Shown here one piece after another: positions 3,268 to 21,583 of a DNA stretch of 64,000 nt. The notes below the pieces were generated by a model. The model saw only the letters and a list, made by a program, of their open reading frames with translations, made no database searches and was not told the DNA's origin. A program made the translations under genes and the position numbers. Position 1 is the first letter of the stretch, and each line of letters begins with the position of its first letter. Source of the stretch: Phycisphaerae bacterium. GTDB lineage: Bacteria > Planctomycetota > Phycisphaerae > UBA1845. The DNA lies in NCBI GenBank assembly GCA_963666835.2, contig CAXXGO010000001.1, positions 1,952,001-2,016,000 on the forward strand. Direction: 5' to 3'.

Positions 3268-5298
3268 CTAGCTAGGTTGAGGGAGGGGACCGTCACCGAG
3301 GTTCGTTTCGGAAGTTGTGTCGGCCTGGATCGGCCGGGCGACTCCGACGTCACTGTCCTGCGCTACGGCGCGGTCCAACAGGTCGGAAACGCTGGTCCGT
3401 TCCAGGGACTCGCCGCGGATCAGGGCGTTCACCTCTTCGCCGGTGATTGTCTCGTATTGCAGTAGGGCCTCGGCGATAGCTTCTAGTTTCGCCCGATTTT
3501 CGGTGATCATGTTCTTGGCGGTCTCGTACCCGGCGTCCAGGATTCGCTTAATCTCCTGGTCTATCACTTCGGCGGTCTTGTCGGAATAGTCCCGCCCGCC
3601 CAGGTCGTAGACATTATTCTTAGAATCACCCTCGCCGTAGTAGACGAACCCGACCGATTCGCCCATACCCCAGTCCCGGACCATACGCCGGGCGATCTCG
3701 GTAGCCTGCTTGATATCGGATGCGGCTCCGCTGCTGATCTCGTTAAAGAAGACCTGTTCCGCGATCCGCCCGCCAAGGGCTACCCGCATGAGCGCGAGCA
3801 GGTAACCCCGGGTGTAGACCATGCGGTCGCGCTCCGGGAGCGAGAAAGTCGCTCCGCCGGCCGGACCTCGCGGAATGATGCTGACCTTGTGAACCGGGTC
3901 CGCTTCCTTCTCGAGGGCCTGAAGCAGGGCGTGGCCGGCCTCATGATACGCGGTGATCTTACGATCGCGCTCGTCAATAACCGAGCTTCTCTTGGCTCGC
4001 CCCCAGCGTACCTTGTCTCGGGCTTCTTCCAGGTCGTCCTGTTCGACGAAGTCCTTATTGTGCATGGCGGCGATGAGCGCGGCCTCGTTGACGATAGCCT
4101 CCAGCTCGGCACCCGTGAACATGGGTGTACCCCGTGCCACCCGGCGGACATCGACGGTGCTGCCCAGTTTGACCCTGCGCATGTGGACCTTGAGGATCTC
4201 ATACCGGCCTTGCAGGTCGGGTAGGGAGACGAACACCTGCCGGTCGAACCGCCCGGGGCGGATCAACGCCGGATCCAGCACGTCCGAGCGGTTAGTGGCG
4301 GCGATGACGATGACCTGGGCGTTTGTGTCGAATCCGTCCATCTCGACGAGAATGGCATTAAGTGTCTGCTCGCGCTCGTCATGTCCGCCACCGCCGAATC
4401 CGGAGCCCCGCCGCCGACCGACCGCGTCGATCTCGTCGAGGAAGATGATGCAGGGGGAATTCTCCTTGGCCTGCTTGAACAGATCGCGCACGCGCGACGC
4501 CCCCACACCGACGAACATCTCTACGAAGTCGGAGCCGCTTATGGAGAAGAACGGCACATCGGCCTCTCCGGCGATGGCCTTAGCCAACAAGGTCTTGCCG
4601 CATCCCGGCTCCCCGACCAGAAGGATCCCGCGAGGGATACGCCCGCCGAGACGTTGGAACTTCTTGGGAGCCTTGAGGAACTCTATGATCTCTTCGACTT
4701 CTTCCTTAGCTTCGTCGATCCCGGCGACGTCGGCAAACGTCACGTTGGTGTGTTCTTTGTGCGTAACGCGGTGCCGGGATCGTCCGAAGTTGCCCAGCAT
4801 TCCGCCGCCTCCGCCCATCGAACGGATTTGCCGGAAAAACACGAACCAGATAAACGCGAAGATCAGCACCCACGGCAAGAGATTCAGCAGAACGATTACC
4901 ACCTGGTTCGGCTTCTCGCAATCGACGGCCGGAATACTCTCGTTCATCCGTTGAGTGAACTCGCCGTCGATGGCTTCGGTGGGATACTGCACTGTGAATC
5001 GCGTGGTTTCCCCGGCCGGATCGGCTTCCGAGAGGATCCGTTCCCCCTCGACCAGCCCGTCTTCCTTGATGACCAGCTTCTCGATCTGCTTGTTCTTGAC
5101 GTACATCTCGAACTCGCTGATCGTCAACTTCTTGGGCGATTCCAGCGAACTCTGCAACAGGGCCACCAGCAGAATGCCCGCTCCCAGAAGGACCAGCCAA
5201 CTGACTAGATTGCGCGACATCCGCGGTGCCGGCCCGTTCGGTTGCTTCGGGGCAGGTGGCTGAGGCTCAGATGGTCCGTCGCCTTTCGGCATCAACAA
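3268..5298 (-). CDS. ftsH: ATP-dependent zinc metalloprotease FtsH
   Basis: Two N-terminal TMs, Walker A GEPGCGKT, Walker [18 protein letters not shown], zinc motif HEAGH. Confidence 0.98.
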
Positions 5299-5371
5299 GC
5301 TCGCAGTATTACGAAGACTTCATTCGGTGCAGCAACACTGCCGGCACCGTCCATTACTTATGCTAGCGTTC

Positions 5372-5878
5372 TCACCAACTGGATTCCATCGTCTCGACCA
5401 TTTGCTCGGCCAGCCCCTCCAGACCACGCGTCATCGCATCGTTGAATCTCTCTCCCGCGGGTGGAATATAACTGGTTTGATACACGAACCTTGGTCTCTC
5501 GATCAGAATATCCCCCGAGCGAAGATCCTGGAAACGATAACGGATAACGATGGTCGAGCCTATCTCGCGAGGCAAATCCGTCTTGTAGTCGTCTCCGAAG
5601 GTACGGTTTTCGACATTAAGAATCTCGCCGCTGAGCAGCGCGTCGGCGGTACGCCGCGGGGCAATCCGGTACGGCGTGTCCAACTCAATCCGCTTAACGA
5701 TCGCTTCGGTAAGTCGAAACTCCAACTCGCGTCGAAACTCCTTAGACTGCAGCATTTCAACGTGAACGGTCTGAATATCGGTCGGAAAGGGCCGTTGCGT
5801 CGAATAGCCGCACCCGGTCAGGGCTGTAAGTGCTATCGAGGAAAAGATCATTAGCCGACTGAGATTTCTCGCCATCAT
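5372..5878 (-). CDS. LptE-family lipoprotein
   Basis: Lipobox LTGC followed by GY; size and position downstream of a BamD-like gene are typical for planctomycetes. Confidence 0.75.
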   Translation of the reverse strand: MMARNLSRLMIFSSIALTALTGCGYSTQRPFPTDIQTVHVEMLQSKEFRRELEFRLTEAIVKRIELDTPYRIAPRRTADALLSGEILNVENRTFGDDYKTDLPREIGSTIVIRYRFQDLRSGDILIERPRFVYQTSYIPPAGERFNDAMTRGLEGLAEQMVETMESSW

Positions 5879-6011
5879 TCTTCTGACGCCTTGTTATCGG
5901 ATCATCCGGACGGACCCTCGGAGCCCGCCCCTTCAACCTATGCCGGTTCGGCGACCGGCCGCACAGCGATGAGTATCTCGTCGTCGCGAACCGCCTCCGG
6001 TGCCGAGCGCG

Positions 6012-7025
6012 CTACGGCTCACCGTAACCACCAGCCGACGCCACCGGGCTCGATGCCCCCAGCAGTTCCAATCGCGCAGCCGCTTTGGTCGCCGCTACCG
6101 AGCCAGGCCAGCCGTCAACCACCGCCTGGTAATAGAAAACCGCCGAGGTCAGATGCTCGGTTCGCTCGTAATACTCCGCGATAGCGAGCTCCTTGCCGGC
6201 GCGGCGCTCCGCGATGGTCTCCAATATCACGCCCACGCCTTCCTGCTCGGCTACGCGCCCGTAGCGGTTGGCGTAATCACGGTACCGCTCCTCGGCCTCG
6301 ATCAAGGCCGCGTCGTCGTATTCTATTCCCGCGAAACTCGCTAAGGCCGACTCGGCCGATCGCCGCAAGGCGTAGCGGTGGTACTGCGTGCTGGGATGCT
6401 CACGCAGCAGCCGGGCGTAGTCCATCTCAGCCAAGGCGTGGTCACCGGTTCTGAAGAGATAATCCGCTTTGGTCTTGATCGCATACTCTGCGTATCTGGT
6501 GTTGGGATAGGTAACGGAGATGTCGTCCAAAATCCGCAGGGCGATGTCTTCTCCGGAAAGCAAACGCACCCCCCCGATCTTCCGCTTGACACCGGACAGG
6601 TACGTTTCCGCGATGACGAATTCCAGTCGAATGGCCTCCTCGGTCAAAGCCATTCCACTGAACTCGTCGAGGAACCCGGTCAGAGTCCCGTACGCCTTGT
6701 AGAAATCACGCCGGCCAATCTGAGCCTCGGCCTTGGCGATGACGACCTCCGGGTATAACGCGTCGGATTCCCCATACTGTTTGACGAACTGCTTGACCCG
6801 GGACAACGCCTTGCCGAACTCCCCGTCCTTATTCAGGACGCGGATCTGGTGCAAGTCGCCCTCCGGCGTACCGGCAGGCGGCGGGGGCGTCTCAACCCAT
6901 TCCCGTCGCTCTGAATCGTACGTGAGCGTTCGTGTTCGCGGCGGATCGGCACGCACTGCCGCCGTGCTGTACACCAAGCACCAGATTGTCACTGCGAGAC
7001 CGATTAGTCGGCTCAGAGTACTCAT
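6012..7025 (-). CDS. bamD: Outer membrane protein assembly factor BamD-like TPR protein
   Basis: Start reassigned to ATG 7025 (MSTLSRLIG..., signal peptide); TPR helices; C-terminal ELAIAEYYER...SAVFYYQ..V..WP.S typical of BamD/YfiO. Confidence 0.75.
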   Translation of the reverse strand: MSTLSRLIGLAVTIWCLVYSTAAVRADPPRTRTLTYDSERREWVETPPPPAGTPEGDLHQIRVLNKDGEFGKALSRVKQFVKQYGESDALYPEVVIAKAEAQIGRRDFYKAYGTLTGFLDEFSGMALTEEAIRLEFVIAETYLSGVKRKIGGVRLLSGEDIALRILDDISVTYPNTRYAEYAIKTKADYLFRTGDHALAEMDYARLLREHPSTQYHRYALRRSAESALASFAGIEYDDAALIEAEERYRDYANRYGRVAEQEGVGVILETIAERRAGKELAIAEYYERTEHLTSAVFYYQAVVDGWPGSVAATKAAARLELLGASSPVASAGGYGEP

Positions 7026-7603
7026 CGGGTCGATTCCTCCCGAGACCGCGCTTCCCGGGCAACCGGATCCGTCCGATTGCACTGCCGGTGGCATTCTATC
7101 CGCAAGAACGCTGTTTACGCAATTACCGCCTAGCCTCGCATGGATGTGGCGGAAGGCCTCTGCGGAACGTGAGAGATGTCGCCGATGGTGGAATGGGCAA
7201 AACAGTGCGACTTGGTAGGGTGTCGGTTCAACGGTTGGTAGCGGCGTCCGCGGCCGTTCCCGATACACCGGAACACGTGTTTTGGGTGTGACTCCTGCCC
7301 GTTTAAGAGGTCACGACGACCGTATGAAGTTGTACCGCAGGTGGACCGGGAGTAGAGTCGTGCCCGTTCGTTTCGAGACCGATTGGCGCTACGTCACACC
7401 CGACACTCCGGTTTTGAGGTGTGCCACTGCTCTTGAGCAGTACCTTGAGCAGTGCGAGGACGGGACACGGTGCGGATTGAATCCGGACCTTATGCGTGTG
7501 ACGAAGCACCAGGGTGAGATTACCGCGAACTCTCGGGTGGTGGCTGCGGAGCGGGCGAGCTGAACCGCCGATTCCGCCGGAGAGCTTCAACGGGAGGGCC
7601 GAC

Positions 7604-8557
7604 GTGAGAGCCGTTACCTTCGATGGCACGCTGGCGTATCTGACCGATCATCCAGACCCCAGCCCGGCAGATGACGAATGCCTGATCCGGGTTCGTCTGG
7701 CCGGGATCTGCGCGACGGATCTTGAGATTGTGCGCGGATACTCGGATTTCAAGGGCGTTCTCGGTCACGAGTTCGTCGGTACGGTGGTCGCCGGCCCGGC
7801 CGAGTGGCGGGACCGGAGAGTCGTTGGCGAGATTAACTGCATCTGTCGTAAGTGCGACATGTGCCAGGCCGGGCTGGCCAACCACTGTCGCAACCGCACG
7901 GTGATGGGCATTGTGGGCCGCGACGGGTGCTTTGCTGACCTCGTGGCCGTGCCGGAGAGGAACCTCCACGCGGTTCCGGACGTGCTGTCGGACGAAGAAG
8001 CCGTATTTACCGAGCCGCTGGCTGCGGCTTGGCAGGTGCTTGCCCAATGCCGAATCGAGCCGCGGATGAACGTCAGTGTGATAGGCTCCGGACGCCTCGG
8101 GTTGCTGGTTGCCCAGGTTCTGGCACAAGCGGGTTGCAGGCCCACGGTGATCGGTCGGAATCCGGCGAAGCTGGTCGTCTGCGACAAGAAGGGGATCCAG
8201 GGGATTCATGTTGACACGCTTGTGGCTCGTCAGGACCGCGACGTCGTGATCGAGTGCAGTGGCACTCCCGACGGATTAGCGATTGCGATGGAGCTGGTCC
8301 GTCCTCGCGGCACTATCGTACTAAAGAGCACGTTCGCCGATGCGGCGACCCCGAACCTCGCGCCACTGGTCGTGCACGAGATCAACTTGATCGGCAGCCG
8401 GTGCGGCCCCTTCCCGGAGGCGATTGATGCTCTCGCCCGCCAGGCGGTCGACGTCCGCACCCTTGTCTCGCAGACCTTCCCGTTGGAACGTGCCGCCGAA
8501 GCCTTCGATGCCGCCGGCTCTCCCGAGAACATCAAGATACTCTTGCGGCCGGGGTAG
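7604..8557 (+). CDS. Zinc-binding alcohol dehydrogenase (MDR family)
   Basis: GICATD, GHEFVG, structural Zn cysteines (CRKCDMC...HC), GSGRLG. Start reassigned to GTG 7604 (MRAVTFDG). Confidence 0.92.
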   Translation: MRAVTFDGTLAYLTDHPDPSPADDECLIRVRLAGICATDLEIVRGYSDFKGVLGHEFVGTVVAGPAEWRDRRVVGEINCICRKCDMCQAGLANHCRNRTVMGIVGRDGCFADLVAVPERNLHAVPDVLSDEEAVFTEPLAAAWQVLAQCRIEPRMNVSVIGSGRLGLLVAQVLAQAGCRPTVIGRNPAKLVVCDKKGIQGIHVDTLVARQDRDVVIECSGTPDGLAIAMELVRPRGTIVLKSTFADAATPNLAPLVVHEINLIGSRCGPFPEAIDALARQAVDVRTLVSQTFPLERAAEAFDAAGSPENIKILLRPG

Positions 8558-8603
8558 GGTAGGGGGGTGCTGAGGAAACGGGACGCAGGCCCGTCACGGG
8601 ATA

Positions 8604-9437
8604 GTGTCCGGAACGCCGGCGGAGGTGGAGAGGCCGATGCAGACAGACCTGTCTTGTATTCAATGCGGTTACAACCTTCGCGGGCTTGACGAGACCGGGA
8701 AGTGTCCCGAATGTGGCACCGCAATCGCTGATTCCCTGCGCGGCGACCTCCTCGAATTCGCCGACCCCGATTGGCTCGACAAGATCAAGCTCGGGGTGAT
8801 TGTCAGATTCTGGCATTTGCCTCTATCGATCATTGCGCTTCCGCTCACGATTGTCTTTCCGGCAACTGCCGACGTTCTCACGTGGCTGGTTGCTGATGCC
8901 GCGGGGCTCGGGGCGTCGCTCCTGATCACGACTCGCGAGCCGCGAATGGAGTTTCGAGAGGGTGTTTTCACTTTGCGAAGAGTGGTTCGCTTCGCCGCCG
9001 CGGCGGGTTTCGCGGGGGCCATGCTAGGTATTGCGCATTCGGCATACACAGCATTGCCAACTTATTCGCACGTTATCGCTATCTGCCTGGGGCTACTCAG
9101 ATGGGCTGCAGTATGGGGCGAGGTGGCCTATTTGGGACGCCTTGCCTCGCGGATTCCGGATAGGCGGCTCGGTGAATCGGCGCAGACGGTTTTGTGGTTG
9201 GCGCTAATCCTCGGCGTGTTTGCCGCCGTGACGGCGCTGGTAGCACTCGAAGGGGTGGGTCTCATACTCGTCGTTTTGGGCCCGCCGTTCTTCATCGGTT
9301 GCCTACTACTTCTGGCCGCGTACAGAAAAGCCCTGAGGCAGGCAGCCGCAAAGGCTCGGGTGACGCTTGCTGCGGATTCGCATCAGCCGGCGGCGCCGGT
9401 CAACCCGCCATTACCCGACAACACGAGTTGCCATTGA
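8604..9437 (+). CDS. Zinc-ribbon membrane protein (hypothetical)
   Basis: N-terminal CIQCGYNLRGL...CPECG followed by about 6 TM segments. Confidence 0.8.
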   Translation: MSGTPAEVERPMQTDLSCIQCGYNLRGLDETGKCPECGTAIADSLRGDLLEFADPDWLDKIKLGVIVRFWHLPLSIIALPLTIVFPATADVLTWLVADAAGLGASLLITTREPRMEFREGVFTLRRVVRFAAAAGFAGAMLGIAHSAYTALPTYSHVIAICLGLLRWAAVWGEVAYLGRLASRIPDRRLGESAQTVLWLALILGVFAAVTALVALEGVGLILVVLGPPFFIGCLLLLAAYRKALRQAAAKARVTLAADSHQPAAPVNPPLPDNTSCH

Positions 9438-9799
9438 AAGCCACGGGTCTCCCGGCGGTTCTGCCGCAAGCCGGAGAGACAAGCTCTCGGCATTTGTCGC
9501 CGTCACTGCCCGCTTGGCGTAGTGTCGAAGCTGGGATCATGGGCCAACTTGTTGACCCGGGTTGCCGGAGTCCCCCGCTTCGGACGGTGTCGAAGCACTC
9601 CTACGCATCTCCACCGTGGCACGTTACGTGTGCCGCTCTCGGGCGCCGTCGCGTCCGGGCGATAATTCCTTGGTTGGAGTTGCCTAGCCCATTATACTGT
9701 TACGTGTTGTTGTCGGAGGGGATCGGGGCAACCTCCCTGCTGCGACCCCACCGAGCATCTCATGAGTTGGAGCGAGGTCTGTTTGCGAAGGAGGAAGTA

Positions 9800-12700
9800 A
9801 TGAGCGCGTTGTTACCCCGGTTAACGAGCAAGTGCTGTACGTGTTGGTGGCCCGTTGCGGCCCTTGTGGCTGTTGCGGGCCTTTCCCTGCCGGCCGTCGG
9901 CGCGGATCGTGTCGTGCTCTGCGAAGAATTCACGGCCACTACGTGAGGGTATTGTTCTACCGCGGGTACCGCGTTAGGCATGATGTTGAACAACTATCCC
10001 GACACGTTCACGGCCGTTCAGATCCACCCCTTCAGCGACGGCTACAACACCGCTTGGAGTGCCGCACGCGGCACGTTCTACGGCGTTGGCGGCACGCCCA
10101 GCGCCCGATTCGACGGCGTGCTTACGTGCCACGGAGCTCAACCGAGTGTGGGCCAACAATACACTTGGTTCCTCGACCAATACAACGCTCGGCAGGCCGT
10201 GCCGACTGACGTGACCATCGAACTCTGCGGCGTCGAGGATAGCGCCCCTACGTTCGACGTCACCGCACGAGTGTGCATCGAGCCCGGTGGAACCGGCAAG
10301 ACCATGCGCATTCACATGGTCCAGGTTCTGGACAACTGGCCCAACCCGCCGACGTATTCGCGGTACACGCAGGTGCTGGCCAACAACGCTCCGGACATCA
10401 CCCTCGGCGCCGGCGAGTGCGCCGAGGTCGAAACGAGTTTTACGTTCGATTCGGCGAGCTGGTCCAACCAGGAAGATATCAAGATTGTCGCCTGGGCGCA
10501 GGATACGCTGTCGTCCGGCCCTTCCGAGGTCTACCAGGCCGCCCAGATGCACTGGCCCTTCGAGGCGTGCGCCCTCGAGCTGGAGTGGGTCGACGTGGGC
10601 GATGCGGGGAACACCGGGGAGCTTTCGGGGGCAGGTGCCGGTGGTGCCGGCCCGGACCGCATCTGCGGCGCGGTTGACTATGAGTACCGCATCGGGATGT
10701 TCGAGGTGACGAACGAGGAGTACCTCGACTTCCTCCAGATGGTCGCCAGCGAGGATACGAACGGCCTCTACAACGCGGGCATGTCCGGCACGGACGGCGG
10801 GATTGTCCAGGAGGGGAGTTCGCCCAACTACACGTACCGGATCAAGGACGACACCTGGCTCCGTAAGCCGGTCAACTATGTCAACTTCTACGACGCTCTT
10901 CGCTTCGCTAACTGGATGCACAACGGGCAGCCGGAGGGGGCGCAGGACGCCTCGACCACCGAGGACGGGGCGTATGACATGTCCCTCGGCGCCGCTGTGG
11001 TTCGCAAGCCTGGCGCTCTGTTCTTCTTAACGAGTGAAGACGAGTGGTACAAAGCGGCTTACTACAAGAGTGGGGGGACCGGTGCGGGGTATTGGGATTA
11101 TCCGACAGCGTGGGACACGGCCCCGACGTGCGAGGTGCCGCCTGGCACCGATGCGGTTAACGGATCGGCCAACTGCGACGATGCCGTCGGGGGTCTCACG
11201 GATGTTGGTGCCTATAACTTCAAGCCTTCCGTCAGTGCGTACGGCACTTTCGACCAGGCGGGCAACGTCTGGGAGTGGACCGAAGAGGACCTTAACGGCG
11301 ATGGTTCGAGGCGCGTGATTCGCGGGGCGTCATTCTACGCCCCGAGCGGCAGCGCCCAGATGCACGCGGCACACCGGGACTCCATCGTTCCCGGCGACTA
11401 CTTTAATATCGGCTTCCGCCTTGCCAGTTTTGCCGACTGTGACGAGAACGGCATTCCGGACCTTTGCGACTTCGACTGCTCCGCGGTTGAAGGTGTGTTC
11501 TGCGATGTTGCCGGTTGTGGGCTTGGAACGGACTGCAACGGTAACGGGTATCTCGATGTGTGCGATATTCTCGAGTGCCCGGAGGCTGATCCGGCCTGTG
11601 CGGACTGCAACGGTAACAGCTTCCCCGACGAGTGCGATCTGGATCCAAGCGATCCGGATGGCAACGGGCAAGTAAGCCCGGACTGCGACTCCAACCTTGT
11701 GCCGGATGAGTGTCAGCCGGACTGCGACGGTGATGACACCCCGGACGTCTGCGAACTCTGCCCGTTCGGGTCGAGTATGGACTGCAATCTGAACGACATC
11801 CCGGACGAGTGCGACATCGCCGACGGGTTCAGCGAAGATTGCCAGGCCAACGGCCGGCCGGACGAGTGCGATGTGTACGCCGGCGCCGGGATGACCGACC
11901 CGGCTTCGTGGAATACGTACGACGCCGGGGCGAATGGCGTTGGCGTCGATCCGGACGGATACCGCGGCGCGATCTACGACGGTACGCGGCATGTGTACTT
12001 CGTGCCGTCCCGCAACGAGGTGGGCCAGCCGCACGCGGAGGTCCTTCGCTACAACACCTCCCTCGGATCGTTCGATAATCCGGCGTCCTGGACCTCGTAC
12101 GAGCCGACGGGCACGATAGGCGATTTTGCCGGGGGCGCCTTCGACGGCCAGTACGTCTACTTCGCTCCGGCAGGGCACGGCTCGTACGCTCAGATCCTGC
12201 GCTACGATACCCAAAGCGCCTTCGACAACCCGGCGGCTTGGGAGACATGCCAACCGGCCGGGACCGACGGCGGTTACAGCGGCGCCGTGTTCGCCGGGGA
12301 CCACGTGTACTTCGTGCCCTACGATACGACAGGCGGCGCGAATAGCACGGTTCTGCGCTTCGACACGCAAACCGGCGGAGGTTTCTGCGATGCCGGATCG
12401 TGGGAGACGTACGACCCCGGCACCGCCGGCATGTACCGCGGCGGTGCTTCCGACGGCCGCTATTTGTATCTCGCCGGGCACGGCGGATCTACGGCGGGAA
12501 CCGTCCACGGCGAAATGCTCCAGTACGACATGCAGGGCGCTTTTGACGATGCCGCATCGTGGGTGACGTTCGACACGGTGGCCGATCCCGACCTGCAGGC
12601 CAAGGGTGGATACACGGGCGTAGTGCAGGCCGGCCGGTTCATCTACTTCATTCCGGACATGGACAACACCGGGGCGTATCACGGACAGGTGCTGCGGTTC

Positions 12701-13756
12701 GATACTGCTGCCGGGCAGTGGTTCGACGATGAGTTCTTCTGGCGGAAGTTCGAGTTCGCGGTCGCTGACGAGTGCGACCCGTGCATGGATTGCAACAACC
12801 CCGTAGGGTACGACGGCGCCGTCTATGATGGCCAGCAGTTCGTCTATTTCGTCCCGCATCATCGTGGCGGAGCTCAACCCCACGGTGAGGTGCTGCGGCT
12901 CGACACGGCCGGGGAGTTCAACGATGCGTCATCGTGGGCAACGTACGACTATGGCATTAGCAGCGAGTGCGCGGCTGATCCGGGTTGCGTTGATCCGGAT
13001 GGTTACTCGGGTGCGGCAACCGACGGGCGTTACGTCTACTTCTCTCCGTTAGAGAACGAGCCCGGGGCGTATCACGGTGAGGTTCTCCGGCTCGATACGA
13101 TGGTGGGATGGTCGAGAGATTGCGACGACGGCGGGATTCCGGACGAGTGCGAAATTGTTGCACCAGCGAGGGTCGTCGATGATGTGGCGAAGAATCGCTA
13201 TCTCTCGTTTGACCCGGAAAACGACGGCTTGTGTACCGGATTCCAGGTGGCGGTGACCTCCAGCGTTTTGTTCCCAACCTGTTCGGGGATCGTGGGCTGG
13301 GTCGGTGAGCCGTTCGAGGCGGAGCCCGGCGTCTGGGTGGCACGCGTAACCGATGAGCCGTACTTCGGTGGCGATTGGCCGGCAGAGGTCCATATTGCCG
13401 ACTGCGAAATAGCACCGGCGACAGCGTACGAGGTTCGGGCCTCGGCGGATGGTATCGGGTTCTCTGCGCCGCTGGCGGTGAGCACGATTGACCTGCCGGC
13501 TCCGAAGTACTGGTGCGATGTCGTTGGCGATTTCATTGAAGGAGCATGGACCGCCCCGCAAGGGACGGTCAACATGAGCGACATCATGGCGGTGTTGCAG
13601 AAGTTTTCTTCAGCGCCGGGCGCTCCGCCACTGCCTTGGATGGATCTGGACCCTGAGGTGCCCAACACGATCGTGAATATGACCGATGTTCAGCGTGCGG
13701 TGGAGTGCTTCAAGGGCGGGTATTATCCGTTCAGCGATCCCTGCGCTTGCCCGTAG
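9800..13756 (+). CDS. Putative secreted selenoprotein: Omp28/thioredoxin-like domain (UGYC), FGE-sulfatase-like domain, Cys/Asp-rich repeats, 7-repeat beta-propeller, dockerin-like C-terminus
   Basis: ATG 9800 with AGGAGG RBS and a signal peptide. TGA 9944-9946 is in frame with ORF 9980-13756 and gives EEFTATT-U-GYC, aligning with Omp28-type EEFTATWCxxC. Hairpin directly downstream. Confidence 0.82.
9947..9980 (+). promoter_or_regulatory. Candidate bacterial SECIS element
   Basis: CTA-C-CGCG(G)-GTA-(C)CGCG-T-TAG hairpin with a G-containing apical loop about 18 nt after the in-frame TGA. Confidence 0.6.
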
Positions 13757-13759
13757 CAG

Positions 13760-14255
13760 GTAGGGCAGGGCGCCGACCTGCCTTTAGCGTTCGGGTTGAT
13801 GTGGATGTCGGGGTCGCATGAAGTCCCGTAGGGCATGGTCGAGGTACGAGACCTGCCACAAACGGTGCGTGTCCTGCAGAGGTTGCGGCAGCAGGCCGTC
13901 GATCTGCCTGTGTGGTTTGGGTTGATATCGACGTCGGGCTCGCATGGAGATTGCGTTGAAGGCGGGTTGATCATCTGGTCTACCGCGATTGATTTCGGAT
14001 TAGGGGGAGGAGTTCTCGGATACCGGGGCTCCTCCCCCGCGTGTTATACCGATCTTGCGGTGCATCCACCGACCGCTGCAGGTAGGGCATGGTCGAGGTA
14101 CGAGACCTGCCACAAGCGGTACGCGCCGGGTGCCATGGTCCACGCTTGCGTGGCCATGAAGACCTGTGGGGTCGTAGGTCGAGGACCAAGGCCTGTCACA
14201 ATAGCGCGTGTTGCGCGTAGATCGCGGCAGGTCTCGTTCCTCGACGCTGCCCTAC
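13760..14255. repeat. Cluster of REP-like palindromes, family B (GTAGGGCA...CGAGACCTGCC), plus a degenerate ~55-bp direct repeat and a GC hairpin
   Basis: GTAGGGCATGGTCGAGGTACGAGACCTGCC identical at 13828-13857 and 14082-14111; inverted variant 14226-14255; short variant at 13760; hairpin 14003-14038. Confidence 0.8.
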
Positions 14256-14311
14256 GGAGATGGTTCGTCGTGGGCGTCCTCCACGGCTGAGTTCCGGAAG
14301 GGAAGCCGGCT

Positions 14312-15283
14312 CTATTGCCCCGCGGTCGCGTACTGCTGCTCCTTGCGCATGGAATTGAGGATGTCGAGGTTCTTGCGGGCTCCTTCATTGTCCGGCAGGA
14401 TGGCCAAGACCTTCTCCAGTTGTTCGGCCGCCAGATCTATCTCCCCCAGACGCGATAACGCCAGGGCGAGGTGGTTATGCGTCTTCGCCAGTTCGGTGTT
14501 GCCGACCTGCATCCCGCGTATCGTGTCCAAATCGTAGCGGGCGAGGTCCTCGGGACGCAGTTCCTTGCTCAACAACTGTTCAATGGCCGCGACGTGTTCA
14601 GGCTCGTCCTCGAAAATGTCGAGACTTTGCTGCAGAGCCGCGCGATAGGTGAGCGTAAGATCGGTCTCGCTGGCAACGGCCATCTCCAACGCCGCCCGGG
14701 CATCTTCGTACCGTTCATGCTCGAGGTGAAGGAGCCCGATCTTGAAGTATATCTCGCCCCGGCTTACGGTCTCTCCGGCGCTTTGTTGGTAATACGCAAT
14801 CGCCTCGTCGGTATTCCCTTGCCGGGCGGCGGCATCGGCGAGGTTAAGGTAGATGAACTCGCGCTCGCTCCGCTTGGTTTCGCTTTGCAGGATCTCTTTG
14901 AGGATCTGAGTGCCCTTCGCGTCGTTGCCTGACTTGATCCACGCGTGAGCCATATTCATGCGGAGAGCGGTGCGGTCGGGTTCAATCTTCAACGCCTCGC
15001 GGTACAGGGCGATGGCCGTGGCGTATTCACCTTCCTGCAGCATGTCGTCGGCCCGGCTCTTGTAGGACGTGGCCTCGACGTGCCGCCCCGACCGGCCCAG
15101 GTCCTGCAGCCACTTCGGGTTAATGAAGGTGAGCCCGCCGAACACCATGAGAAACAACCAGATGGCGATCAGACCTGCGGTGACGACGGTCTGTCCCCGA
15201 GAGGGGGACGCCGCCGGTGCAACTGGTCGACCCTTTCGCCGAGTCCTGCGCTTAGCAGGTGTTATGAAGAACAAAGAGGACAT
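14312..15283 (-). CDS. Membrane-anchored tetratricopeptide repeat protein
   Basis: One N-terminal TM and several TPR motifs (AIALYREALKIEP; HNHLALALSRLGEIDLAAEQLEKVLAILP). Confidence 0.85.
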   Translation of the reverse strand: MSSLFFITPAKRRTRRKGRPVAPAASPSRGQTVVTAGLIAIWLFLMVFGGLTFINPKWLQDLGRSGRHVEATSYKSRADDMLQEGEYATAIALYREALKIEPDRTALRMNMAHAWIKSGNDAKGTQILKEILQSETKRSEREFIYLNLADAAARQGNTDEAIAYYQQSAGETVSRGEIYFKIGLLHLEHERYEDARAALEMAVASETDLTLTYRAALQQSLDIFEDEPEHVAAIEQLLSKELRPEDLARYDLDTIRGMQVGNTELAKTHNHLALALSRLGEIDLAAEQLEKVLAILPDNEGARKNLDILNSMRKEQQYATAGQ

Positions 15284-16508
15284 CCTTTTGCTCGCTCTTG
15301 AGTTTGTTGAACAGCCGGCACGCCTCGGCGTTCTTAAGAATGATCACCTGCGTGCCGTCCTTGGTGTACGGGTTGTACAGGAACTGGCTCACCGTCTGCT
15401 GGGGGAATCCGCCGCCGCCTTCTCCGTGATCGCCGCTCCCGATCAGGATTATGTCAGCCTCTTGCTGGAGAAAGAAAGCGCGCGAGCGCATGAAGAACTT
15501 GCTCTTCTTGGGGGCGGGGCGGAAGGTCCCGTCCGGAAAGATGAGCAGGTCGAAGAAGTACATCGGCACGCCCTTGTAGACCGTCAGGCCTGACCCGGTG
15601 TACACGATGTGCTCCGCGCGGTGCTTGATGAAGAAGTACGATTGAGCGGCGACCGCGCCGATTACGATCGTGGCGATGGCATACCTCGCCGGCCGGAACT
15701 GGCTGAGGTGCAGGACCGCAAAGAACGCCGCGAACCCGCCGAACGTCAGCAACACGACCACGCCCCAGTCCTTGCGTTCGGGCAGCAGCGAAGAGAAGAT
15801 CAGAAGTGACATGGCAAAGGCAGTAATCAGGGTCAAAAGACTCAGCGGATTCTCGAAGTAACCGCGCAGATGGCGACTGCGCAGCCAACCGGCCTGGGTC
15901 AACAGAGTATCCGTGCGGCTCTCCCCGACCATAATCAACACGAGCCCCATCACCGTTCCCCACGTGTCCTTGGCGATGTCGCCCATCTCGAAGCTGCGGT
16001 TACTGATCCACAACTGTACGGTTTCGTCGAAGGCCGAAAACGAAACCGCCAATATAAAAGTCATCAGGGTGAAACGGCCGGCGGATACCCCGCGCGGGTG
16101 CAGGTCCCGGTACATCATAAGCGCGAACGTCGCGTAGGCTAAGTAGTGCCAGTTCTGTTGCAGGTCATAGAAGACGTGCCCGAAGTAATAGTCGGCGATC
16201 TGCTGGGCGAAGGCGTCCATTAGGATGACGAGGACGACCGCCGCGATTCGCATCCGGGTGAGTTGGCGGCGGAATACGATCAGCGCGACGGCGGCCACAA
16301 CGACCGCGGCCACCGGGACAAACGCGATCTCTGTTCCACCGACCGTGAAGCTGAATCGCGAGAGCTTCGCGATAGCCGGCTGGAGAAAATTGCGCAGCAA
16401 AAGAAAGGGCGTTGCCACGAGCAGCATGCTGTATAGCACAACATGCAGACGCGTAGAATGCACCCAATGCGCTGGCGCTGCCACATTGCGCGTACGTCTT
16501 CCGGACAT
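15252..16508 (-). CDS. VanZ-like membrane domain fused to a C-terminal Mth938-like domain
   Basis: VanZ-like WHYLAYA...FDETVQ...R.FE.GDI; about 9 TMs; C-terminal IILIGSG...EAC..FN.L...FVLHNTC resembling Mth938/AAMDC. Confidence 0.7.
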   Translation of the reverse strand: MSGRRTRNVAAPAHWVHSTRLHVVLYSMLLVATPFLLLRNFLQPAIAKLSRFSFTVGGTEIAFVPVAAVVVAAVALIVFRRQLTRMRIAAVVLVILMDAFAQQIADYYFGHVFYDLQQNWHYLAYATFALMMYRDLHPRGVSAGRFTLMTFILAVSFSAFDETVQLWISNRSFEMGDIAKDTWGTVMGLVLIMVGESRTDTLLTQAGWLRSRHLRGYFENPLSLLTLITAFAMSLLIFSSLLPERKDWGVVVLLTFGGFAAFFAVLHLSQFRPARYAIATIVIGAVAAQSYFFIKHRAEHIVYTGSGLTVYKGVPMYFFDLLIFPDGTFRPAPKKSKFFMRSRAFFLQQEADIILIGSGDHGEGGGGFPQQTVSQFLYNPYTKDGTQVIILKNAEACRLFNKLKSEQKDVLFVLHNTC

Positions 16509-17089
16509 CGTTCTGTCGGGCGGCGCGGAAAGGCTTTACGCCGCTTCGGCGGTTTATCTCATCCGCTGCGGTAATATGAGAAGCAATCTCACGGACATCC
16601 CTCCGCCGACGGAATGCCGACCGCATACATGTTTGGAGGGTTCTTCGAAGCGGTTTTGCGATCTGCACGCTCGCGCCGGAGCGGAAGGCGACAGTCCTGC
16701 GCCTGCTCCTCAAGCGAGCCATTGCCTGCCGCGATCCTCTCCGATCAGGCACCCGCCGGCCGCACGGCTACGAACGCGCCTTGCGACAGGATCCACCTTA
16801 AGCCCATCCGGGCGGAGAATCAAGAAGTTTGTGGCGGCGGCGTTGCAGATGTGCCACGTGCCCGAGCAGTAGTCAGCAGCTACCGCAAAAACGGCTACCA
16901 CGATGAAGTATGGCGGTGAAGCGTCAGTACAAGGATTGGGTTCGCGAGAGCTGAGAGACCGGGTTGCGGTCGAACCGAAGGGGGTGCTCGAACACTATGG
17001 TAAGGTGGCAAGGGGGGAGTCTGTCATCAAATGCCGTGGAGATGGCATGGTAGATTGCTGCGTCGGGGCGGCCGCGGGGGCGATGGTCG

Positions 17090-18259
17090 CTAACCCAGGG
17101 GAAGCTGGAAGTCACCGACGTAACCACGTTGTTGGCAATACGCGAACAGCTCGTCGGTAGTGCGAAAGACCCGCGTGGCGGTCTCGGTGATGAACGGGGA
17201 CGGTTCGCAGTCCGGACGCCAGATTACGAACACCTCCTTGGTGCTCTCAAACGCATGCTGGAGTTCACGTTCCACCCCCGATGACAGCAGTGGACGCCCG
17301 TCCGGCAAGGCGGGGATGTAGCTCACAATCATGTCTGACTGATCGATGAGCTTGAAGTCGCGGGCGTAGATCTGGGCGTCAACGTTCCGCGCGATGCGGG
17401 CGACTTCCCCAACGTTGAAGGTCACCAGGCGCCCGTTGGTCTCAATCTCAACATGATCCTCGCCTTGTTGCGTGGCCTCGCCGGCGCTATGGAGCAGAGC
17501 TTTCTCGTCCAGGTCGGCCGGATCGAAGGTGATGAAGTGCTCGGCCAGCAGATCGCGAAAATGCTCGATCTCGGCCAGCACGGCGGGCATGTCCAGAACG
17601 TGCGTCATCGGGAATGAGGGGTAGACCCGTTTGCGGTCAGCCTCAAACATCAGCCGGTATAACGACTGGGCCGCAAGCTGGGGATTGCCGATCGACATGA
17701 CGAACGCGTGGCCATACCCGGCAACCGCTTCCGCCATGGCCTCGGTTACCACGATTTCTTCTTCCCGCCATACAAGGATGTCCTTGAGCGTGTGCCGCAG
17801 CTCGTGCTCGCGTTCCAGCCGTTCATGGACCGCGTCCACGTTGTCCACGAGAGTTACGTACACGTCAGCATCGAGGGCGACCATCTGGTTGTGGTCGTAC
17901 GCATGGAACAGGCCGTGTTTCCAGCGGAAGGTCGCGTGAGTGTTGACGATCAGATTGACGCCGGTTGCCGCGGTTGCCAGGATGTCCTTGAAGACGCTCT
18001 TCCGCAGAGCGGTCAGACGCTGCTTCGGCAGGTCCAGGATACGCCCCGGGACAACGTCCGGAGCCTCGGCGTACATCCGCTCCCCGACGTTAGCCAGCTC
18101 GACTTTGTGGCCGTTTGCGCGGGCGAGCTGCACGGCTTGTTCAAGAAAGGGCTTTTTGTCCAGACCGACCTGTCCGGTGACGATGACCCGGACTCCGGTG
18201 TGGCGCCGGTGCCTCTGTCGATGGAATAATGAACGCGCGGACGGTCCTTCGTCACTCAT
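17090..18259 (-). CDS. Archaeal-type adenylate-kinase-like P-loop domain fused to a nucleoside 2-deoxyribosyltransferase-like domain
   Basis: VIVTGQVGLDK (deviant P-loop), IVNTHA; C-terminal RDFKLIDQSDMIVSY...SSGVERELQHA...KEVFVI. Start uncertain. Confidence 0.65.
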   Translation of the reverse strand: MSDEGPSARSLFHRQRHRRHTGVRVIVTGQVGLDKKPFLEQAVQLARANGHKVELANVGERMYAEAPDVVPGRILDLPKQRLTALRKSVFKDILATAATGVNLIVNTHATFRWKHGLFHAYDHNQMVALDADVYVTLVDNVDAVHERLEREHELRHTLKDILVWREEEIVVTEAMAEAVAGYGHAFVMSIGNPQLAAQSLYRLMFEADRKRVYPSFPMTHVLDMPAVLAEIEHFRDLLAEHFITFDPADLDEKALLHSAGEATQQGEDHVEIETNGRLVTFNVGEVARIARNVDAQIYARDFKLIDQSDMIVSYIPALPDGRPLLSSGVERELQHAFESTKEVFVIWRPDCEPSPFITETATRVFRTTDELFAYCQQRGYVGDFQLPLG

Positions 18260-18281
18260 GGTGCATTTCGCAGAAGCGGAA

Positions 18282-18836
18282 CTAGAAGTCGGCAGGGTCG
18301 CCGAACTCCATTACCCAATAGATCGAGTGCTCGCCGCCGTTGCGGACGGCCACCCCTAGTTCGCGCCACTTGGGATCGAGGATAATCTCCCGGTGGGACG
18401 GGCTGTCCATCCAGACCCTCATGACATCGGCCGCGGTCTCCTGCCCGGCGGCCAGGTTCTCTCCGACGGAGTAGAACGTGTACTTCCCGGCCATCGCCCG
18501 CTCACCCGGACCGTGGCCGGTGACGGGATCCAGATGTCCGAAGAACCCCTCTTCGATCATGATGCAGGCGTAGTCGGACGCGACCTTCTGAAGGGTACTG
18601 CTGAACACGACCGGAGGCAGTTCTTCGCCGGCCCGCTCAAGATTTACCAACTGCAGAACCTGGTCCGATAGACGATCCGCCTCCTCCGGCTCGATGCACT
18701 TGGCGACCTCAGAGGAAAGACCGTTATCATCCGCTTCCGCGGGAAGCTGGTCCCCGGAAAAACATCCGGTAACCATCGCCGGCAGAAACAGGAACGGCAA
18801 CAGAGCTTTCTTGGATCGTCCTCTTCGCACGATCAT
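18282..18836 (-). CDS. CAP (SCP-like) domain lipoprotein
   Basis: LVNLERA, FFGH, GENLAAG, WMDSPSHREIIL, YWVMEFG; lipobox VTGC. Start reassigned to ATG 18836. Confidence 0.88.
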   Translation of the reverse strand: MIVRRGRSKKALLPFLFLPAMVTGCFSGDQLPAEADDNGLSSEVAKCIEPEEADRLSDQVLQLVNLERAGEELPPVVFSSTLQKVASDYACIMIEEGFFGHLDPVTGHGPGERAMAGKYTFYSVGENLAAGQETAADVMRVWMDSPSHREIILDPKWRELGVAVRNGGEHSIYWVMEFGDPADF

Positions 18837-19172
18837 CCTCGGCTTCTTGGGGCAGCGCCCACCGCGCCACATCACCCATTCTATCGCGGTGCTTGCGCCC
18901 GAACAACCCGGAAACCGTCGCAAGCAAGTCACGCGGACTGGAATCCTGTGTGGCTGAAATCTCCCGCACGCCGTTGGCCGGGTGTCACGCAACGACGCTG
19001 TTGATATCGTCGAAGTTGCCGGGTCTCCTTAGGCGGTCTTGCGCCCGCCAGCCGCATGGGGCCTTGCACGGCGTGCTTGCAGCAATGTCGCGGTGCGAGT
19101 TTAATGGCCTCGGTCGGGAGACCGGCGACAAGTTGCAGTTCGAACCTCGGGTCTTTTCAAGTAGTGAAGCAG

Positions 19173-20015
19173 ATGAATAACAGACACCTGACCCTAGGGC
19201 ATAGCCCGGATCCGGATGACGCATTCATGTTCTTCGCCCTGGCTCGCGGGCTGATCGACTCCGCAGGGTGGACTTTCGAGCATGTTCTTCAAGACATTCA
19301 GACCTTGAACGAGCGAGCCCTCCGGGGGGAACTGGACATTACGGCCATCAGCATCCACGCGTACCCGCGCGTGGCCGACAAGTACGCCCTGACCAATTGC
19401 GGGTCGAGCATGGGTGACGGATACGGTCCGATGCTGGTGACGCGCGAACCGATGGCAATCGAGGATCTTCGCGGACGGCACATTGCCGTACCGGGCGAGA
19501 TGACCACGGCGTTTTTGGCGTTGAACCTGCTTCTGGGCAAGGGAGAGTTCCGACACACCGTGGTGATGTTCGACGAGATCATCGACTTCGTAGCCGATGG
19601 GAAAGCCGACGCCGGGCTGATCATCCACGAGGGGCAACTTACGTATCAGAATCGGCGTCTGCACAAGGTCGTGGATTTCGGAGAGTGGTGGAAGGGGACG
19701 ACCGGATTGCCCTTGCCGCTGGGCGGCAATTGCATCCGCCGAGACCTCGGGGCCGAGGCGATGACCGAGGTGGCCGGGATTCTCAAACGCAGTATCGAAT
19801 ACAGCCTCACCCATCGGGATGAGGCGGTTGATTACGCTCTGGAATACGCGCGCGATATGGGCAAGGACCTCGCCGATCGGTTCGTGGGCATGTACGTCAA
19901 CGCCTGGACGATCGACTACGGCGACGAAGGGCGGCAGGCGGTGCGCGATCTCTTGCGACGTGGATACGACGCCGGGCTGGTGCCCGCGGTCGGGGATATT
20001 GACTTCGTTGGGTAG
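19173..20015 (+). CDS. mqnD: 1,4-dihydroxy-6-naphthoate synthase (futalosine menaquinone pathway)
   Basis: LGHSPDPDDAFMF, SMGDGYGP, IIHEGQLTY, LPLPLGGN, MYVN motifs. Confidence 0.93.
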   Translation: MNNRHLTLGHSPDPDDAFMFFALARGLIDSAGWTFEHVLQDIQTLNERALRGELDITAISIHAYPRVADKYALTNCGSSMGDGYGPMLVTREPMAIEDLRGRHIAVPGEMTTAFLALNLLLGKGEFRHTVVMFDEIIDFVADGKADAGLIIHEGQLTYQNRRLHKVVDFGEWWKGTTGLPLPLGGNCIRRDLGAEAMTEVAGILKRSIEYSLTHRDEAVDYALEYARDMGKDLADRFVGMYVNAWTIDYGDEGRQAVRDLLRRGYDAGLVPAVGDIDFVG

Positions 20016-20095
20016 GGAAGTGTCGGGGACGGCGCGATTAGGGTTAGAGTAACCGATACGCAAGCCCGCTCCGCCACTTCAAGGAGAAGGAAACC

Positions 20096-20434
20096 ATGGA
20101 GCTGTTAGTTGATTTGGTGATTGGCTCGGTGATTGAGTGGGCGATCCTGATGATTGTGATTCCCATCGCACAGCGCCTGGCGGATTTCTCCATGCCCGGT
20201 GCCGTGGAGATGGCATGGAAACTAGCGGCTATTGTTCTGCTCAAGAACATCGTCGGTAGCGGGTTGGGTTCGGCGGTCGGCGGGTTTGGTGGAGGCCTTG
20301 CCGCTATCGCGGTATTCTGGGGTGGGCTGTATAAGGTCTTCGATTTAGACATTTTCGGGGCCGTGATTATTCTGGTGGCCTCTTGGATCGTCAATACCTA
20401 CGTGGCAACGGCTCTAATGGCCGCGTTCGCGTAG
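20096..20434 (+). CDS. Small hypothetical membrane protein
   Basis: AAGGAG RBS; about 4 hydrophobic segments. Confidence 0.75.
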   Translation: MELLVDLVIGSVIEWAILMIVIPIAQRLADFSMPGAVEMAWKLAAIVLLKNIVGSGLGSAVGGFGGGLAAIAVFWGGLYKVFDLDIFGAVIILVASWIVNTYVATALMAAFA

Positions 20435-20485
20435 GAACGGACGACATTTAAGGAGTCCGGCGGCTGAGCCGGTCGGTCTTCGGTC

Positions 20486-21583
20486 TTGGAGGGTCAAGCT
20501 GTGGCGACTTGTCGCTGCCCGTGCGGGGCGAGTTACCGGGTACCCGATTCGGCGCTGGGAAGGCAGGCCAAGTGCAAACGCTGCGGAAGTTATTTCACGC
20601 TTGAGGCGGAAGATGACGGGCTGTTTACGATTGCAGATGAGATTGGGGCGGGCGGCTCTTCGAATCAGGGCGGGGCGGAAGCGGCGTTAGGCGTTGCGGG
20701 CGGGCGGGTTGAGCCGACTCTACCTCCGCAATCGGTGACCTTCGAGGGGCTCGCCGGAACCGCGGCAGCACGCGGGGGGAGCGGTTCGATCGGCCGAGGA
20801 ACCGCTCGGGGGTACGCTTCCGACGTGCTTTGGTCGTTTCTGTTTCTTGCTAATCCGGGGAATCTGGCGTCGTTCCTGGTGATCTGGCTGGCGTTAGTGC
20901 TTGGCGAGTACACGTGTCTCCCGTTGGGAGTGATGGCGACCTTGTGGTTCGCCGCGTTTCGGCTCAACGTTGTTGTTTGCGCTGCTTCCGGTGAGAACTA
21001 CCTGCCGGACGTCCATTTCCTGACGGATATCTTCTCGAATCTGGTCTGGCCTTGCGTTCAATGGACGGGCACCTGGTTAATAGTGCTCACGCCGGCCCTT
21101 GCGTATGAGTACGTAACTGGAACTCGGGGAGTGTTTGCCTGGGCGGCGGTGTATGAGAAGATGAGTGGCGGACTCGGGGCGTTGCTCGGAGGATCGGTTT
21201 CCGGCGTGACGGTGTTGGACGTGCTAATCTACCTTGGGATTGCCGCGTGGCCGATGGTGGTTCTTTGCGTTGCTATGGGCGGATTCGGCTCGTTGTGCCG
21301 CGCGGATCTGATTTGTGTGACGATTGTACGGACGTTTCCGGTCTATCTGATCACGCTGGCGTTGATGTTCGGAGCGGTTTTTCTGCAGGAGGCGGCACAG
21401 TCTCTTGCGGCTGCGGGCGTCGGGCCCAAGGCCGGTCGGTCCTCGGGCGGTACCACCGGGATTTGGATCGTTGCGGCGGTGTTGTTGAGAGGCGCTGAGA
21501 TATACGTTGACATAGTCCTGATGCGACTGATCGGCCTCTACTATCATCACTTCAAGGAGAAGTTTGCCTGGTCTTGGGGTTGA
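20486..21583 (+). CDS. Zinc-ribbon domain membrane protein
   Basis: CPCGASY...KCKRCG N-terminus, multiple TMs, C-terminal GLYYHHFKEKFAW. Start approximate. Confidence 0.8.
   Translation: MEGQAVATCRCPCGASYRVPDSALGRQAKCKRCGSYFTLEAEDDGLFTIADEIGAGGSSNQGGAEAALGVAGGRVEPTLPPQSVTFEGLAGTAAARGGSGSIGRGTARGYASDVLWSFLFLANPGNLASFLVIWLALVLGEYTCLPLGVMATLWFAAFRLNVVVCAASGENYLPDVHFLTDIFSNLVWPCVQWTGTWLIVLTPALAYEYVTGTRGVFAWAAVYEKMSGGLGALLGGSVSGVTVLDVLIYLGIAAWPMVVLCVAMGGFGSLCRADLICVTIVRTFPVYLITLALMFGAVFLQEAAQSLAAAGVGPKAGRSSGGTTGIWIVAAVLLRGAEIYVDIVLMRLIGLYYHHFKEKFAWSWG

Follow-up and report, generated by a model that had tools for sequence, protein, structure and literature searches.

A predicted exported selenoprotein read through an in-frame TGA in a Phycisphaerae genome, with a thioredoxin-like UxxC head

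Is the TGA at positions 9944-9946 of a Phycisphaerae contig the end of one gene, or a codon within a larger one? The question is raised by two open reading frames (ORFs), 9194-9946 and 9980-13756, called under translation table 11 in a window of 64,000 nucleotides (nt), by which we mean the whole stretch of DNA that was analysed (GenBank assembly GCA_963666835.2, contig CAXXGO010000001.1, positions 1,952,001 to 2,016,000 of the forward strand). Both ORFs lie in the frame of an ATG at position 9800, and an initial annotation had read them as a single gene, split by the TGA, for a secreted protein of 1318 residues with selenocysteine (Sec, U) at residue 49. From the sequence and its relatives we conclude that the TGA is almost certainly a Sec codon, and we consider it highly probable that 9800-13756 is one gene for an exported selenoprotein, a prediction that includes the mechanism by which the protein would be made and would act. 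Positions given below without a contig name are those of the window, and features lie on its forward strand unless stated otherwise.

The coding sequence of 1318 codons (9800-13756) is continuous except for TGA 9944-9946, the sole in-frame TGA, and closes with a TAG at 13754-13756 rather than with a TGA. Translation with the TGA read as U yields 1318 residues, with U49 in the context ...ADRVVLCEEFTATT-U-GYCSTAGTAL... and in the motif EEFTATT-U-GYC, and the frame, length and peptide of the initial annotation are all recovered, as is its ribosome-binding site, a Shine-Dalgarno-like AGGAGG read directly at 9790-9795, 4 nt (AAGT) upstream of the ATG. U49 occupies position 1 of the U-G-Y-C motif, while the TGT at 9953-9955 encodes Cys52, the partner of U49 in the UxxC pair and the presumed resolving cysteine, which is invariant in all 19 rows of an alignment of family members (A1). 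Residues 1-35 (9800-9904; ...LSLPAVGA/DRVV, with the slash at a cleavage site judged by eye) form a probable signal peptide of the Sec type, here meaning the export route, in which a basic N-region is followed by a hydrophobic stretch. In the structural model this leader appears as a lone helix (residues 17-27), with low predicted local distance difference test (pLDDT) values before residue 35, and all 19 aligned relatives carry a similar leader with the ending [AG]A.[RK]. A scan of 9300-14200 revealed no promoter-like sites, and terminator-like sites there were no commoner than in shuffled sequences.

The initial annotation had proposed looking at what homologues carry in place of U49, and the column proves to hold TGA or, in other copies, mostly a cysteine codon. 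A six-frame search with the first 269 residues recovered two paralogues in the host genome, with one TGA each, and 11 of the 61 related genomes searched also gave matches. In the DNA of the 19 aligned copies, the column is TGA in 16, Cys in two (...TATWCGYC and ...TATWCSFC) and Tyr in one, and the flanks are conserved on both sides, with [AG]A.R.V..EEFT before the TGA and xxC..AG after it. When the host order was searched with a profile, 80 of 279 genomes proved to contain the family, in at most six copies each; among the 150 matches listed, which stand beside 69 further matches, exactly one TGA was present in 103 and none in 47, so that about two thirds carry the TGA. The 44 distinct copies that were read divide into 32 with TGA, 11 with Cys and one with Tyr at this column, and ten further fetched copies all carry TGA there, one of them in a U-x-x-D motif and one behind a divergent leader motif. 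Altogether, the TGA stands at the U49 column in 42 of the 42 TGA-bearing copies read, a recurrence which, as a pattern in sequence, is far beyond what chance would be expected to give. Across the phylum, an even sample of 401 genomes gave a match at E <= 1e-10 in only four, three of them distant and TGA-free, which indicates that the branch is concentrated in the host order. A related-locus search with the single protein returned two loci, one of which is a real relative in a metagenome-assembled planctomycete genome.

How the Sec and non-Sec forms are related was followed in a quick tree, built by maximum likelihood with the trait column masked; its 44 head domains came from the top-scoring loci and were not randomly sampled. 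The two forms are interspersed, with 10 changes between them, of which at least three are forced by well-supported branches, and they cluster no more than shuffled labels do (196 of 500 shuffles); on this tree, no direction of Sec/Cys change would be claimable. Several copies depart from the usual motif or arrangement. One locus retains Sec and has Asp for the second Cys (U-A-Y-D; L090:508-1380, genome G503), in another (L039) Tyr replaces Sec or Cys, and three public proteins (P0004, P0010 and P0016) have Gly at the Sec column with the second Cys retained (EEFTQ.TG.PC). Copies often lie in tandem or near one another on one contig (for example G054:C1:69880-71675, G588:C452:9869-12964, G014:C176:788-4328 and G509:C37:36524-38606), and in some cases a Sec form is paired with a Cys form (for example G503:C28:53335-55661 and G603:C361:17027-20067).

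A Sec codon requires the dedicated decoding machinery, and the genes for it, which the initial annotation had suggested seeking, are all present in the host genome (6.02 Mb in 7 contigs, 92% complete). The selA gene scores 568 bits; selB adjoins it, also with a score above its cut-off; a TGA-free selD (C1:1328296-1329225) scores 391 bits; and the tRNA for Sec (tRNA-Sec) scores 68.4 bits in Rfam and is called by ARAGORN as tRNA-SeC with anticodon tca, so that selA, selB, selD and tRNA-Sec all exceed their curated cut-offs. A second copy of selD (G000:C6:1524365-1525294, 368 bits) itself contains one in-frame TGA and presumably encodes selenophosphate synthetase in its Sec form, which places a classical selenoprotein in the same genome. 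The ability to decode Sec is nearly universal across the host order, where selA was found in 237 of 279 genomes, 234 of them above the cut-off; because selA is so common, its co-occurrence with the TGA form discriminates only weakly.

Directly 3′ of the TGA lies a hairpin that resembles a bacterial Sec insertion sequence (SECIS; bSECIS for the bacterial type). It spans 9957-9977, with a core stem of 5 base pairs (bp) (9961-9965/9969-9973), a loop of 3 nt (GUA, 9966-9968) and three outer pairs (9957-9959/9975-9977); the loop begins 19 nt from the UGA, GGU 9965-9967 sits 22-24 nt from the U of the UGA, and the 24-nt segment 9956-9979 folds at -9.8 kcal/mol. The bSECIS consensus, as excerpted from a 2026 review, gives a loop of 3-9 nt, a stem of 4-16 bp, a UGA-to-loop distance of 16-37 nt, a minimum free energy of -7.5 kcal/mol or lower, and a G within the first two loop positions, usually then followed by G or U (PMC13188914), and the hairpin lies within all of these constraints as stated in that excerpt. 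A hairpin of this type (ACGCGG-GUA/GUC-CCGCGU) directly follows the UGA in every Sec form read. In the 32 Sec forms, the stem is 5-8 bp and the loop 3-5 nt, opening with G-G/U, with GGT invariant in 32 of 32, and 30 of the 32 fold at -7.5 kcal/mol or below (mean -10.1). Pairing is kept in 89.1% of the cells of these 32 rows, compared with 33-52% in controls with slid partners and with 0 of 500 shuffles reaching 89.1%, and one pair, columns 24-30, is compensatory, as 19 rows have G-C there and 11 have C-G. Of 41 Sec forms read, 40 encode the loop glycine by GGT, against 4 of the 10 non-Sec forms with Gly at that place, a bias which points to a constraint on the RNA and not on the protein.

The residue replaced by Sec can be placed within a fold. 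Residues ~35-135 are predicted to form a thioredoxin-like domain and residues ~136-254 a beta-sandwich, together an HBP35/Omp28-like module (9902-10561) assigned with AlphaFold2, Foldseek and the NCBIfam model NF045500. AlphaFold2, run on alignment A1 for residues 35-254, gave a confident model (pLDDT 88.7, predicted template-modelling score, pTM, 0.83), in which an alpha/beta domain of the thioredoxin type precedes the beta-sandwich. Searched with Foldseek against the PDB, this head had as its three top-ranked matches HBP35 of Porphyromonas gingivalis (5y1a; E 1.2e-10, TMq 0.65, 257 aligned columns), a thioredoxin-like protein (2axo; E 3.1e-8) and an Omp28 domain (2r2c; E 1.9e-4), with the last likeness lying in the beta-sandwich half, and the Omp28-type thioredoxin fold put forward in the initial annotation is supported by the model and by these matches. 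HBP35 has Cys, not Sec, in its thioredoxin-like motif. The family profile also matches thioredoxins by sequence (best E 3.1e-6), and in the profile alignment the Sec column falls on the first Cys of FTATWCGPC, while P100, invariant in alignment A1, falls on the cis-Pro loop M-P-T; Sec therefore replaces the nucleophilic cysteine of the WCGPC motif. In the model, a helix (residues 52-65) begins at C52.

Could the TGA nonetheless be a true stop, either a nonsense mutation in a pseudogene or the end of a 48-codon leader ORF upstream of a separate protein that starts at ATG 9980? Table 11 does split the ORFs at 9946 and offers that ATG, and public gene callers make such calls for relatives, but the TGA recurs at one column in all 42 TGA-bearing relatives read, across many genera and with Cys in others, and the protein sequence is conserved on either side of it. 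A product beginning at 9980 would be left without the entire active-site motif, and also without its signal peptide and strand beta-1, and both variants that contigs show inside the gene are synonymous. We regard a true stop as close to refuted and very improbable. An error of sequencing or assembly, in which TGA stands for TGC or TGT, would take no more than a single-base difference, and Cys forms do occur in the family; yet contigs of runs from two studies, one of them perhaps the source sample, span 9944-9946 and are identical there, retaining the TGA at which the initial annotation had advised a look at the raw reads, and the two host paralogues and 103 of the 150 listed relatives also have one TGA. 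Within the gene, the contigs differ only at 9913 and 10567, the third codon positions of Val38 and Ala256, differences that are both synonymous when the codons are read by eye. An error is the least probable of the readings considered here. The frame would also be kept open if UGA were decoded as Trp, Gly or Cys, through a reassigned code or by near-cognate read-through, since read-through alone suffices for this. Against such decoding, TGA behaves as an ordinary stop elsewhere, with selA and selB free of internal stops and many TGAs in the non-coding flanks, and the column alternates with Cys, a signature of Sec, in a genome that has the complete Sec pathway and with a dedicated hairpin after the codon; we hold it to be about as improbable as a true stop. 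Taken with the homologues, the Sec machinery and the hairpin, the identification of residue 49 as Sec is thus supported as the initial annotation proposed it.

A different doubt accepts the Sec residue and concerns what it does. The head might be non-catalytic, binding a metal or haem through Sec and Cys or sensing the redox state on behalf of the attached domains, and a few observations fit this: the nearest solved structure, HBP35, is a 35-kDa haemin-binding protein in the excerpted text of its description (PMC2907840), a host paralogue has the Sec module fused with multihaem cytochrome c, and relatives exist with Gly, Tyr or Asp at one redox residue, which a strict dithiol enzyme would not tolerate. 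The same excerpt, however, also credits HBP35 with thioredoxin activity (PMC2907840); the UxxC motif occupies the place of the active site in thioredoxin, and the cis-Pro loop is conserved; and in known bacterial selenoproteins Sec is mostly catalytic, according to the excerpted review (PMC13188914). We consider a non-catalytic head unlikely, although less so than any of the readings that dispense with Sec.

Several results weigh against the reading of 9800-13756 as a gene for an exported, redox-active selenoprotein. Among the 58 genomes with the TGA form, four gave no selA match; all four have tRNA-Sec above its cut-off and three of the four have selB, and their selA is probably missing merely from the assemblies. 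The hairpin of this gene has just five core pairs, and at a pair that is A-U in 17 of 32 relatives it has a C.U mismatch; it overlaps the conserved peptide A-G-x-A, so that its conservation may partly reflect a constraint on the protein; four of 12 non-Sec forms also reach -7.5 kcal/mol or lower (non-Sec mean -5.3); and a search of 9700-10200 against Rfam at E <= 10 gave no match for it. For the 67 nt that follow the TGA, folding is no more stable than in shuffled sequences (z -0.06, with 97 of 200 shuffles folding equally well), a null result in G+C-rich DNA which means that stability alone is uninformative and that the case for the hairpin rests on conservation and covariation. Pfam found nothing on the head domain at E <= 10. 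The best NCBIfam match, NF045500 (Omp28-related selenoprotein), covers residues 34-250 with E 1.9e-15, but its score of 57.1 bits (54.2 in six-frame search) is far below the cut-off of 200. The model of the Omp28 outer-membrane lipoprotein, NF033782, likewise matches weakly, at the active-site motif (residues 29-77), with 24.5 bits against a cut-off of 150, and a lipobox ([LVI][ASTVI][GAS]C) is not visible by eye in the leader. Finally, the redox function, the cleavage of the signal peptide and the surface location are things that we infer.

The preferred reading, one gene for an exported selenoprotein, carries with it a proposed sequence of events. While the ribosome stands at the UGA, SelB with Sec-tRNA(Sec) would bind the hairpin 9957-9977, and Sec would be inserted at residue 49. 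The N-terminal signal peptide would direct the protein across the cytoplasmic membrane, and cleavage near Ala35 would place Sec some 14 residues into the mature chain. Sec49 and Cys52, opposite the conserved T-P100 loop of the cis-Pro type, may then cycle between the selenol/thiol and selenenylsulfide states, with the remaining domains positioning this redox head at the cell surface or within a complex. The head would be an extracytoplasmic thiol-disulfide oxidoreductase or peroxide reductase.

Since 2008, proteins of this kind have been known from metagenomes of the ocean, and the one described here is a divergent and unusually large member. The original description, as excerpted, is of a 'hypothetical protein GOS_C' with 74 Sec and 312 Cys sequences and SECIS-like hairpins (Zhang & Gladyshev 2008, PMC2398784), which a table in a later review equates with NF045500 and lists with the motif UxxC (PMC13188914). 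As far as these excerpts go, GOS_C shares with the present protein the thioredoxin-like fold, the UxxC motif with Sec in first place, the many Cys homologues and the hairpin right after the UGA. A literature search under 'Omp28' and 'selenoprotein' returned no paper, the family being in print as GOS_C. The differences from NF045500 lie in size as well as in score, since the model has 377 positions, whereas the protein has 1318 residues and includes FGE-like, Cys-rich, propeller-like and C-terminal domains. Low scores recur in the branch: the three copies of the host genome reach 44-86 bits and eight shorter relatives 22-82 bits, which means that the NCBI model would not name the branch. HBP35 resembles the protein in joining a thioredoxin-like domain to a beta-sandwich, in being exported, and in ending with a C-terminal domain common to other exported proteins, as excerpted from its description (PMC2907840), and a weak profile match extends over the active-site region (E 0.0018). 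It differs in that identity is 15%, that it comes from another phylum and that its C-terminal domain is a type IX secretion signal. To the WCGPC thioredoxins the likeness consists of ftAT.-U/C-..C aligned on FTATWCGPC and TP100 on the cis-Pro loop, whereas the selenoprotein is exported, has the extra beta-sandwich, carries Sec for the nucleophilic Cys and varies in the middle residues of the motif (GY).

The consequences of the TGA for annotation can be seen in the public database. Of 90 hits there, those that bear a name are all called 'hypothetical protein', and the organisms, where stated, are Phycisphaerae-type genomes from metagenomes. Among the 12 hits that were read, some have Cys or Gly at the Sec column and the others are calls whose first Met lies beyond the TGA. 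P0002, P0003 and P0005 have CGYC, while P0024, P0029, P0031, P0037, P0066 and P0078 begin after the TGA, and one of these, P0031, is by eye an apparent truncated call of the TGA gene in locus L028, with which it shares sequence. These six calls bear out the expectation, voiced in the initial annotation, that standard gene callers would truncate such genes. When a call restarts at the next Met, the signal peptide goes missing together with the first strand of the fold and the catalytic residue.

Beyond the head, the protein carries four further regions. Residues 295-542 (10682-11425) form an FGE-sulfatase-like (SUMF-like) domain, FGE being the formylglycine-generating enzyme, with 68.4 bits for Pfam PF03781 against a cut-off of 23.3 and with SUMF2 (1y4j, E 3.4e-6) as the best PDB match by sequence; these residues contain 2 Cys. 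SUMF2 is not known to have the catalytic Cys pair of active formylglycine-generating enzymes. There follows a Cys-rich region (residues ~547-690, 11438-11869), recognised by regular expression and by Cys counts, with five repeats of the DC[ND]xN..PD.CD type and 20 Cys in residues 543-690, for which Pfam has no match. About seven repeats of 50-65 residues (11870-13171; ...VYF.P....GEVLR.DT....SW...), six found by regular expression and the seventh (GEMLQYDM) by eye, may form a beta-propeller-like array; they have one weak relative in the host genome. Over residues 551-1318 Pfam gave noise only (Calcipressin, E 0.22), and a tandem-repeat finder run on the DNA found nothing relevant within the gene.

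The last ~190 residues (13172-13753, ending ...YPFSDPCACP) constitute a C-terminal domain, delimited by its matches in the host genome, an alignment (A3) and a model, that the protein shares with many others. It has 63 matches in the host genome (for example G000:C1:506668-507237 and C3:410231-410809), in ~60 large proteins, and the family ends in ...YPFSDP.DCP with the stop codon immediately after it in 17 of 20 fetched copies. The model (pLDDT 86.8) combines a beta-sandwich with a dockerin-like pair of helices. Pfam and NCBIfam gave no match, and no PDB fold was found at E <= 0.001, the best being FN3-type sandwiches (E 0.016-0.03). By analogy, it looks like a lineage-specific sorting or anchoring domain, which would follow the logic of the C-terminal domain that marks HBP35 for type IX secretion.

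The two paralogues in the host genome place the Sec head in other company. One (G000:C6:886598-889066; L025:1426-3702) combines a Sec head (UAAC) with repeats like those of thrombospondin type 3 and with a multihaem cytochrome c region rich in CxxCH motifs, in which Pfam finds Cytochrome_C554 (58.9 bits) and Paired_CXXCH_1 (37 bits). The other (G000:C6:954358-955896; L024:1453-2991) is minimal: in its 513 residues a short acidic linker connects a Sec head (UGGC) with the C-terminal domain found also in the 9800-13756 protein. Around the gene itself, the neighbours within 3268-21583 show no obvious functional link to it. They encode FtsH (3268-5298, reverse strand), a YfiO/TPR lipoprotein (6012-7268, reverse), a zinc alcohol-dehydrogenase-like protein (7514-8557, forward), a TPR protein (14312-15283, reverse), a VanZ/DUF498 protein (15252-16508, reverse), a CAP-domain protein (18282-18992, reverse) and a menaquinone-biosynthesis protein of the VitK2_biosynth family (19056-20015, forward); the ORFs 8604-9437 and 13835-14290 have no Pfam match.

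No new principle emerges from this protein, since thioredoxin-like selenoproteins with UxxC have been known since 2008. Because the branch falls below the NF045500 cut-off, a model with a lower threshold, or a new one, would repair many annotations, and the family shows how heavily this little-studied group uses selenium in proteins that are exported and probably attached to the surface. A bolder idea, which we think improbable though worth stating, is that the Sec head serves in the host order as a standard N-terminal redox cartridge on surface-displayed proteins whose C-terminal tails are dockerin-like or lineage-specific, and acts with haem proteins; it is suggested by the haemin-binding nature of the closest structure, by the paralogue fused to a multihaem cytochrome c and by the position of the head, always directly after the signal peptide. 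On this same improbable footing, the head might reduce or otherwise handle extracellular haem or iron, or exchange electrons with multihaem cytochromes. If that were true, selenium would be at work on the cell's outer face, as part of an undescribed extracellular electron or haem pathway.

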